Below, piece by piece: positions 3,001-6,000 of a DNA stretch of 10,739 nucleotides. The position numbers are program-made. Location of the stretch: IMG/VR virus record IMGVR_UViG_2703719365_000002, one strand, 5' to 3'. Each line of letters begins with the position of its first letter. Position 1 is the stretch's first letter. This stretch comes from a virus (lineage: Duplodnaviria > Heunggongvirae > Uroviricota > Caudoviricetes).

Positions 3001-6000
3001 ACCACAGAGCGATTGTGATGCCTTAAAAGCGATTTATTGAAGTGATATTTGCTTAATCGAAATTCTTTTCTTTGATTCCTGCGGCCCTGATGGCTTTCAT
3101 TACTGCAATTACCGTTTTGTCACGCCCATCCTCATAACCCATCGCATAAGCACCTTCTTCACCATCTTTCCAAAGGTCGTCATTCGATTCGGGCCAGTCG
3201 ATATCCAGTTCAATAGCTGCTCGCGATGCCTGCCATAAAGCCCACCAATCATTTAAGGAGTGACGAATATCCATGCTTGAAAATGCGAAGTACCTATCAC
3301 CATTTCTTGCCTCGGTTATCATCTCGAATGGTAATCTCAATTTTTTGGCAACGTATTCCTCAAACTGCTTTCTTGATTCGTCCATATCAATCACCGTTAG
3401 TCGTTTCACTCACGAATCTGACAAAACCAGCCATGTTAATTTGCATGAGTTTTTTCAACACTTTGTCTCGTCGGCTACGTTTTGGTTTTGGCCTGTGATT
3501 GAATCTTTCACAAACTGGAAGGCTCGATGATTTCCAGTACCTATTACGCCTTGCTCCATCTTCAGCCATATCGGCATGAATAAGGTCTGCGAGTGTGCTC
3601 ATATTCACCTCTTCCAGTTACATTGGTTTTGTAATGTTGCTAGTCATCGTTCGAATAACAAAATGCGTAAGTAACCTTGCTTTCCACATGTAAATCTATT
3701 CAAGGCGAGATAAATCTACGAATACCGGACCTTTGTAATCTGGTCTTGATGCCCTTATGTATGAGCTAATAGTTTGTGCATCTTGCTTGTCCAGATTCAT
3801 GACTTCCCTCTCCCCCAAATAAAAAGGCCTGCGATTACCAGCAGGCCTTTATCTTTTTTTAACACGCTTTCGAGTCCTTTTATATTTTTCCTTAAGATAT
3901 TCCGCAAGTTTATCCTCATCATTATTAAATTGAGATAAAAGCTCATGCTCGCAATTAAGTGCTTTACTCGCATAAGTTCCATATAGTTTCTTTCTTGCTA
4001 GTGCTGCTATGAATGCTGCATCTTCTTTGCTATCGAAATACCCTAACGATATTGTCTTATTTTTATAACCAACATAAGACTTCCACCTGCCAGTTGGCTT
4101 ATACCAAGACACTCCAATTGCACCGGATGTGTTTAATCTATTCCCTACAATGTTTCTTGCATTCTGCTCTTCTGTTGCCAGTCTTAGGTTTGAAATCCTA
4201 TTATCAAGTCTGTTCCCATTTACATGATCAATAAACTTAGGAGGCCATTTTTTGTATACATAGAACCAAGCAAGTCTATGCGCCTTATACAAAACATTAT
4301 TTATACTAATGCATATATAACCACCACTAACACCTCCAGCAATACTACCTTTTACTCTTACTACTGAATTTGTTTTTAGCCATTTAAATATTCCTGTTTC
4401 TGAGTCATATGATAATGTTGACAGAAGCTCATCGTGATCAATTAGTTTTTTTATTCGCATAAAGAATATACTTAATAATATATACAGTAAGAACCATTAG
4501 TAACGATAACCCTGCTATTAGCTCAGTGATGTAGATGGTCATACGTCAGCCCCTTGTGCATATCGTCTGCCACGCGCAGCAGGTGCATTTGATGCTGTGC
4601 AAATCTGTCTGGCTTCATCCTGGTCACATGCAACAAAGTGTCCGTTACAGAACCGCTGGTAAACTGTACCAAGCGAGCCAAAACGGTTTTTCGTCACGAT
4701 GATTTCAGCAAATGGCGCGGCGCTACTGTTCTCATCATATACCGCTTCCCGATAGAGCATGATGATTGAGTCTGCGTCCTGTTCAATGCTTCCTGAATCA
4801 CGCAAATCTGCGTTTGTCGGGCGTTTGTTTGGTCGCTTCTCAACATCGCGCGAAAGCTGACTCAGGGAGATAACCGGTGTTTTCAGGTCTTTCGCCATCG
4901 CCTTCAGGCTTCCGGAGATGTGAGCAATTGCGAGGTCGTTGCGGTCTGCTTTCGGCTTCTCAATCAGGCCAAGATAATCCGCCATGATGAGTGACAGGTT
5001 TGGATTTTCCTGCTTATGCCGTTCTGCGATTGAGCGTATTTCTTCGACCGATAACCGCGAAGCATCGACTACCCATACATCCAAATCTGCAAGCTGACTC
5101 ATGCCGTTAGCAACACGTGCCCAGCCCTCGTCATCCATCGATGCAGGATTTCGCAGTACGCTAACCGACATCCTCCCGGCGTTGGCAATGCTTCGCTCTG
5201 CAATCTGCAATGCGCTCATTTCCATTGAGAAAATCAATACCCCGCGCCGGACGTCAGAACCAGGAATAACGCGGCTTGCCACACCTTCGGCAATCTTCAG
5301 CGCCAGTTCGGTTTTCCCCATACCAGGACGAGCGGCGATAATCACCAGGTCTTCTGCGTTCATCCCTCCAGTGATAGCGTCAAGCTCTTCGATTCCGGTC
5401 TTCAGGGTATCTGACTCTTCTCCGTTCCTCAGACGCCTGTCAAGCGTGTCAGTGTAGTCAGTGATATTTCCCCTAACCGTACAGGTTTAACCTCGTCACG
5501 GGGCTTTCTGATGGCTGAAAGACGCTTTACAAGTTCATCCATCGCCTGACTCGATGCGTCGATGGTTCCGCTTTGGATTGGTTCACGCATTTCATCCATG
5601 ATTTCCAGCACCAGACGGCGGTGATAGTTATCCGCGACCATTCCGGCATATCCCTTCAGGTTTGCGGCACTCGGGCAGTTTTTGCTGGTCATCAGGATTG
5701 ACGTGAAATGCTCCTCTCCGCACGCCTCGGCAACCATCAGCGCATCGATTAGGTTTCTGTTTCTCGCCTGCTTGCGAATAACCTCGAAGGCTTTCCGGTA
5801 GAGCGGAATTGAAAACGCTTCCGGCTCCAGCGTTGCCAGAACGTCACTGGCGGTTGGAGTTAATCCACCAATCAGCAGGCCACCGATAACGCTAGCTTCG
5901 ATATCCTGTCTCATGCAATCCCCCTGTCTGCAAACTTCCCTTCCCGAACTCCCGTTAACGAATCTTCCCTCAGCAGGTAATCAAAATCTGCCGTCCAGCC

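Follow-up and report, generated by a model that had tools for sequence, protein, structure and literature searches.

How does a strongly AT-rich nuclease gene come to lie at the junction between the replication and nin modules of a lambdoid prophage, and what does the site that it occupies reveal about its arrival? The question is raised by the IMG/VR virus record IMGVR_UViG_2703719365_000002, a 10,739-nt stretch of Caudoviricetes DNA (hereafter the window) that represents the early-right region of a lambdoid Shiga toxin (Stx)-type prophage, with its genes read on the minus strand. An original prediction made from this sequence alone described a free-standing HNH-AP2 endonuclease gene, inserted directly downstream of the replicative helicase gene and equipped with its own terminator, as a selfish homing insertion. 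By comparing the locus with related phages and bacterial genomes, we found that the gene is part of a 665-bp cassette that is almost certainly a discrete insertion into ninA/tR2, a conserved boundary sequence of lambdoid phages (Table 1 gives the coordinates of all features). We consider it probable that the cassette is a free-standing HNH(HNN)-AP2 homing-endonuclease gene inserted in this boundary sequence.

Delimitation of the cassette and its insertion site

The boundaries of the insert and a candidate target were defined by comparison with insertion-free relatives. In phages Nil2, 2851, YYZ-2008 and WGPS8, which are without the cassette and whose helicase is 99.6% identical to that of the window, the helicase stop codon is followed directly by ninA, a 25-codon open reading frame (ORF) that overlaps the hairpin annotated as tR2. 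In transcriptional orientation, the empty site reads ATGACCATCTACATCACTGAGCTAATAACAGG^CCTGCTGGTAATCGCAGGCCTTTTTATTTGGGGGAGAG, where the caret marks the position of the window's 665 extra bases. These bases are flanked by ...CTAATAACAGG and CCTGCTGGTAATCGC..., adjoin the tR2 hairpin on its 5′ side, and comprise a 50-nt AT-rich leader, a 612-nt ORF (stop codon included) and 3 nt (AGG). The target bases before the insertion point are ATAACAGG, and because the 3′ end of the cassette, ATAA-AGG, resembles them, the junction can be placed only to within 8 nt. A search for a target-site duplication or transposon-like ends gave only an imperfect 8-nt repeat (7 of 8 positions, with a gap) and no inverted ends; the repeat could reflect chance or microhomology. 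Single-nucleotide differences in the flank, at 4515 and 4521, accompany most copies of the cassette, not all.

The compositional contrast that had been predicted was borne out by windowed GC content. The cassette has 33.3% GC, compared with 52% for the helicase gene and 42.7% for 1 kb on the nin side, and it is the lowest-GC 660-bp segment of the whole 10.7 kb (minimum at 3848, ∼3 SD under the mean). The GC content at third codon positions of the HNH gene is 0.24, compared with 0.38-0.62 in the neighboring genes.

The empty element, ∼80 bp long and largely non-coding, is a conserved linker between the replication and nin modules of lambdoid phages. Record annotations name it 'bsq6; boundary sequence' in Sf6 and tR2 in P22, HK620, Nil2 and Sf6, in agreement with the predicted location at a known mosaic joint with a tR2-like terminator. 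The window's hairpin and its flanks represent this same element, with 97-100% identity in Nil2, Sf6, lambda and HK620, and differ in being split by the cassette into a 32-nt and a ∼45-nt half. The upstream 32-nt half is identical or nearly so in the empty alleles of Nil2, Sf6, lambda, VT1-Sakai and HK620 and in every occupied allele. The insertion thereby breaks up a conserved sequence that is a candidate for recognition: the empty sequence ...ATAACAGG^CCTGCTGG... is interrupted in every occupied copy.

The terminator assigned to the gene proved to belong to this boundary element. Folding supported the predicted strong hairpin, with a 10-bp stem, 6 GC pairs and T-runs on both strands (plus strand, −18.8 kcal/mol, z −5.3, 0 of 200 shuffles as good; minus strand, −20.3 kcal/mol, z −2.5). 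However, an own terminator was rejected, since the hairpin is identical in empty alleles. It is a GC-rich hairpin at the P/ren-nin junction, with its U-run on the pR transcript, and is homologous to annotated tR2 elements, and we conclude from these comparisons that it is the resident tR2, a predicted terminator that was not brought by the cassette. The last bases of the cassette re-form the foot of the stem, and the T-run that they add to the other strand gives the hairpin a bidirectional appearance that it does not have in Nil2.

Distribution of occupied and empty sites

Insertion-free alleles are abundant, so the gene is not a feature of all relatives. At a required coverage of at least 80%, the empty element was found in 380 phage records, among them lambda, P22, Sf6, HK620, 933W-type phages and VT1-Sakai, and in 1884 of 5426 complete E. 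coli genomes; matches of any coverage numbered 2912 places, with up to 8 per genome. The cassette was found in 20 phage records (identity ≥98.9%) and at 138 places in 126 complete E. coli genomes, some of which hold 2-3 copies, with 95-100% identity over phages and genomes. Occupancy is ∼5%, or roughly 1 site in 20. PA28 (occupied) and VT1-Sakai (empty) form an isogenic-type pair that match on both flanks, in a context other than that of the window, and in E. coli genomes the matches to a synthetic empty-site query extend over 1265 bp (600 + 665).

We then compared 32 occupied loci drawn from phage records, E. coli genomes and IMG/VR, with their upstream flanks classed against reference flanks. 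Both junctions could be located in 25 loci, and the insert measured 665 bp in 23 of them and 666 bp in two frameshifted copies; presence or absence at one site with constant ends is the pattern expected of a free-standing homing gene. The sequences upstream of the cassette could be sorted into six or more unrelated classes (933W-type DnaB, HK022 P, two Toprim primase-helicases, lambda ren, another small gene, and copies interrupted by insertion sequences (IS)), and the downstream DNA into at least six clusters. Across these contexts the cassette is 98-100% identical, compared with 91-96% for the other shared segments there. The HNH gene of the window starts 78 bases past the helicase stop codon (4539-4541), so the predicted position holds for this locus as a discrete insert adjoining the helicase gene, but these comparisons indicate that the association with the helicase is incidental and that the cassette follows ninA/tR2 whatever gene is upstream. 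Because the cassette is found behind at least six different upstream genes, the ninA/tR2 sequence is likely to be its target.

Features of the encoded protein

The predicted HNH-AP2 gene is an intact minus-strand ORF of 203 codons. Its product matched Pfam HNH_3 (E 2.9e-15, 56 bits; cut-off 24.8) and PHROG 99, 'HNH endonuclease' (E 9e-72); an NCBIfam search with the protein gave no match. The nuclease core occupies approximately residues 58-103 and is followed by an AP2 domain (∼114-163) and a basic helical tail (∼165-203). In an alignment with 39 homologues (39-61% identity), all family-invariant residues are kept (H61, R62, D78, H79, N87, N91 and N103). The protein also contains the sequence boxes HRLAW, WP, DH, DNR, NLR and QN, which are those given for 'HNN-AP2' enzymes (PMC2248197).

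A structure model of the protein (pLDDT 89) agreed with these assignments. The modelled AP2 region superposes on the AP2 domains of TEM1 and ERF1 with an rmsd of 1.1-1.3 Å, confirming the AP2 fold at the level of the model, and PF00847 is carried by a 97%-identical cluster representative of the protein. In a Foldseek search the nuclease fold matched I-HmuI (PDB 1u3e) with a probability of 1.0 over 109 columns; sequence similarity to I-HmuI is marginal (E 0.23). By Pfam, residues and fold the protein lies in the HNH_3 ('HNN') subset of the HNH/His-Me finger endonucleases, and by fold and cluster representative in the HNH-AP2 homing endonuclease family, in which AP2 is C-terminal to the nuclease. 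We conclude that all sequence and fold criteria tested place it among the HNH(HNN)-AP2 endonucleases.

The basic C-terminal extension of 35-40 aa (window 3849-3965, ending ...KEKYKRTRKRVKKR) is lineage-specific, being found in 0 of the 39 aligned homologues. The model shows it, with reduced confidence, as a pair of helices, and it may serve as an additional element for DNA binding.

Comparison with known homing systems

HNH-AP2 proteins were described as a homing family in 2004 (Magnani et al., as reported in PMC10448857 and PMC2248197). The family occurs in phages and cyanobacteria and includes enzymes of the Xanthomonas phages Xp10, OP1 and Xop411 (PMC2248197) and ICP1 'IPA-HNH' (PMC10448857). 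The gene in the window shares with it the N-terminal His-Me nuclease with the boxes listed above (the last as (E)QN), the C-terminal AP2 domain, the free-standing, sporadic and AT-rich character of the gene, and the existence of degenerate copies. It differs in its basic tail and in having a defined, conserved ∼80-bp site, a 25-codon ORF over a terminator, that is common to very different phages; for the Xanthomonas phage genes, conserved flanks could not be found. I-HmuI, an intron-encoded HNH nicking enzyme of Bacillus phage SPO1, has the same nuclease fold and H-N-N active site but lies within a group I intron and uses DNA-binding modules other than AP2. The seg and mob genes of T4 are likewise intergenic selfish nuclease genes, often between conserved genes and transcribed with their neighbors, and they spread by break repair with co-conversion of flanking markers; they are, in contrast, of GIY-YIG or other HNH types and belong to virulent phages, whereas the gene studied here sits in a terminator-bearing module linker of temperate lambdoid phages.

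In itself this is an ordinary selfish gene, and GenBank records (Stx phages, PA28, HK022) already label identical sequences as HNH or homing endonuclease. What is new is the insertion point, placed to within 8 bases, which provides a concrete candidate recognition site in a classic lambdoid mosaic linker. Since an occupied phage (HK022) and an empty one (lambda) are both in standard laboratory use, both homing and break-driven module exchange are directly testable.

Expression of the HNH gene and the NinA′ ORF

Insertion of the cassette creates a chimeric 34-aa ORF, NinA′, composed of the first 11 ninA codons and 23 hydrophobic codons encoded by the cassette. Its ATG overlaps the helicase stop codon (ATGA) and its last 23 nt overlap the start of the HNH gene; it matches the NinA family phrog_5907 in residues 1-12 only. 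A promoter scan of 3300-5000 found no minus-strand sites, with the limit that a weak promoter may escape a simple consensus search, and inspection of the cassette leader by eye revealed at best a hexamer pair with 3 of 6 and 5 of 6 matches. The gene thus does not look like a moron, for which an own promoter and an own terminator would be expected. Because there is no promoter-like site on the coding strand, we propose that the HNH gene would share the pR transcript of O and the helicase gene, in a segment ending at tR2. The NinA′/HNH overlap suggests weak translation, probably coupled to the NinA′ ORF, which would suit a potentially toxic nuclease.

Degenerate copies and paralogues

Degenerate copies of the HNH gene include A8 frameshifts at two of the sampled loci (L010 and L027), truncations in H89 and H90, and IS insertions. 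In the window, positions 4446-4452 form an A7 run on the minus strand that covers HNH codons 3-5, inside the NinA′/HNH overlap; the A8 copies are shifted to a 7-aa ORF, and the run is a mutational hotspot that inactivates the gene. In phage 1717 (FJ188381; L016 177-2618) and in Stx2a_F349, ISEc8 has inserted within the cassette's first 8 nt, duplicating 8 bp of target (GGTTATCG) and separating the HNH gene from the helicase gene and NinA′. Other E. coli genomes have an IS3 (L007) or an IS100 element (L009) close upstream of the HNH gene.

A Logan contig (SRR10380363; L006 3919-4516) contains a chimeric HNH gene. Its first 279 bp, comprising the ninA start, the NinA′ ORF and 197 bp of the HNH gene, are 100% identical to window 4542-4264, and beyond them the sequence switches abruptly to a different HNH allele adjoining rusA, with no tR2 and no nin region. 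This arrangement points to a recombination breakpoint within the endonuclease gene. Further junctions of the nin region, between ninB and dam and after ninF, are also taken by HNH-AP2 paralogues, with 33-40% identity (L007 46-573; L010 1-450; window 1531-2085). The L007 paralogue starts with MTIKSNTPA, the residues at an internal start of the window's Dam methylase ORF, and seems to have taken over the 5′ end of its target gene, in much the way that NinA′ does here.

Homing and alternative explanations

The idea of a selfish homing insertion gains from the abundance of insertion-free alleles, the foreign composition of the cassette, the family architecture of its product and a site annotated as a mosaic joint; endonuclease activity, AP2-mediated targeting and homing itself we infer from sequence comparison. 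Active homing into the ninA/tR2 site seems to us somewhat the better supported possibility. During mixed infection or induction of a polylysogen, the AP2 domain of a nuclease made at a low level would recognize the intact ninA/tR2 sequence of a cassette-less phage, perhaps with the basic C-terminal helices aiding recognition of the linker, and the HNH core would cut or nick the empty linker; I-HmuI-type enzymes are nickases. A phage recombinase of the Red or Erf type would then repair the break from the occupied allele, copying the cassette in and destroying the site. The homology for this repair would come from the 32-nt and ∼45-nt conserved flanks or from longer shared modules, and homologies of 30-50 bp are known from recombineering to be enough for Red-type recombination. 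A small cost to the phage is expected because the cassette leaves tR2 intact and rebuilds a small hydrophobic ORF, and the degenerate copies would fit the usual rise-and-decay course of homing genes.

Several observations weigh against such homing. The match of the ORF to Pfam AP2 (E 1.6e-6, 28.7 bits) is under the 33.3-bit cut-off, and expression of the HNH gene is uncertain because no ribosome-binding site is visible, inspection of the leader having shown no Shine-Dalgarno sequence before the HNH ATG. When a reconstructed empty site with both window flanks was used as the query, the best 25 of 61 matches were all occupied. Among representative genomes of 185,579 species the junction was found in E. 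coli only, although Salmonella phages carry the site. A literature search found no paper on this gene, protein or target; the HK022 copy may be mentioned in the HK022 genome paper (Juhala et al. 2000). Moreover, the same distribution could come from ordinary homologous recombination via the conserved flanks.

This last point is the basis of an explanation in which the cassette is a passive accessory that entered once, by an illegitimate event, and was then shuffled through the boundary sequence by ordinary Red/Rec recombination while serving another phage function, such as recombination or replication processing, attack on host DNA or exclusion of competitors. Passive spread accounts for the distribution almost as well as homing does: the flanks are a known recombination linker in hundreds of phages, occupancy is low and confined to E. 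coli, and ren takes the same position in lambda-type phages. It is harder to reconcile with the architecture of a family known as homing enzymes, with an insertion that always breaks a highly conserved sequence at one and the same point, with the greater identity of the cassette than of the other shared segments, and with the outcome of a defence-system check, in which the sole PADLOC match was weak (E 4e-4) and to a generic 'homing endonuclease' model. We regard a passive cassette as possible, if doubtful. Since plant AP2 domains are transcription-factor domains, and the gene lies directly on a terminator beside a C/G-rich tract, one might also picture a DNA-binding regulator whose AP2 domain binds the GC-rich tR2 or the C-rich tract and modulates termination or replication, its nuclease lost or irrelevant. 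A purely regulatory AP2 protein is very unlikely because the catalytic residues are conserved, the invariant nuclease residues all being kept; frameshifted and truncated copies are also tolerated in prophages. The presence of an HNH protein in a lambdoid phage recalls the packaging-associated, terminase-assisting HNH protein of the HK97 gp74 type. For this role we see practically no probability, given a position in the early-right operon, an HNH_3/AP2 type and absence from most relatives; it was rejected because the neighbors are the helicase, ninA/tR2, DUF7301 and NinB and not terminase or portal genes. An intron- or intein-encoded endonuclease was likewise rejected, as there is no Rfam intron family and the ORF is separate, in a frame other than that of NinA′.

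If homing into ninA/tR2 is active, a further consequence can be considered, namely that in mixed infections and in polylysogenic E. coli, with its up to 8 such sites per genome, nuclease breaks there make the replication-nin junction a hotspot of module exchange, and that the paralogues do likewise at other nin junctions. We think this unlikely, but were it true, a selfish nuclease would be one engine of lambdoid mosaicism at 'boundary sequences'. The idea that nuclease breaks aid module exchange has already been put forward for other phage groups (PMC10448857).

Gene order and other features of the window

The genes around the cassette follow the order listed in Table 1. Positions 3600-4800 are 100% identical to Stx2a_WGPS4, SH2026Stx1, phi330 and many E. 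coli O157:H7 chromosomes.

Table 1. Coordinates of the cassette, its insertion site and neighboring genes in the window
Feature	Coordinates	Strand	Evidence or remark
HNH(HNN)-AP2 endonuclease gene, 203 aa	3849..4460	minus	ORF call, Pfam, PHROG, alignment, structure model
Inserted cassette, 665 bp	3846..4510	minus	Alignment of occupied and empty alleles
AT-rich cassette leader	4461..4510	minus	Sequence
Upstream half of ninA/tR2 boundary sequence (32 nt, ninA 5′ end)	4511..4542	minus	Retained beside cassette
Downstream half: most of tR2 hairpin, U-run, G-rich tail (former ninA 3′ end)	3802..3845	minus	Alignment
tR2 intrinsic-terminator hairpin (predicted)	3823..3850	.	Resident element; folding and comparison
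Chimeric 34-aa ORF NinA′	4438..4542	minus	Translation; annotated as HK022_56
933W-type DnaB-like replicative helicase	4539-5914	minus	Pfam DnaB and DnaB_C; immediately upstream of cassette
O	5911-6732	minus	
cII	6913-7209	minus	
cro	7351-7566	minus	
cI	7635-8336	plus	
nin genes DUF7301 (two copies), NinB, Dam	further downstream		

The helicase gene of the window is split by a 1-bp deletion near 5465 (GTGATGATTTCC -> GTGAT-ATTTCC; an indel relative to Nil2) into ORFs of 161 aa and 274 aa. The deletion is present in 0 of the best 16 of 157 matching phage records, and no record matched at 100% (best, 99.4%). Because exactly four complete E. coli genomes share it (strains 7784, NZRM4169, Z1835 and Z1836), it seems to be a genuine allele, carried by a small O157 clade; judged from the sequence, the prophage carrying it is probably replication-defective.

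The region directly beyond tR2 shows a second mosaic difference: window 3238-3801 comprises 564 bp compared with 93 bp in Nil2 and PA28. The 564-bp segment holds a 40-aa ORF (3696-3818) that matches phrog_21123 and a DUF7301 gene (3387-3608), and a second DUF7301 paralogue is located at 2705-2920. Finally, two minus-strand Rfam matches scored above the gathering score, the Hfq-binding RNA isrK (1239-1315, 74.7 bits) and C4 antisense RNA (1130-1213, 66.7 bits), and both sit upstream of an antirepressor-like ORF (343-1077).

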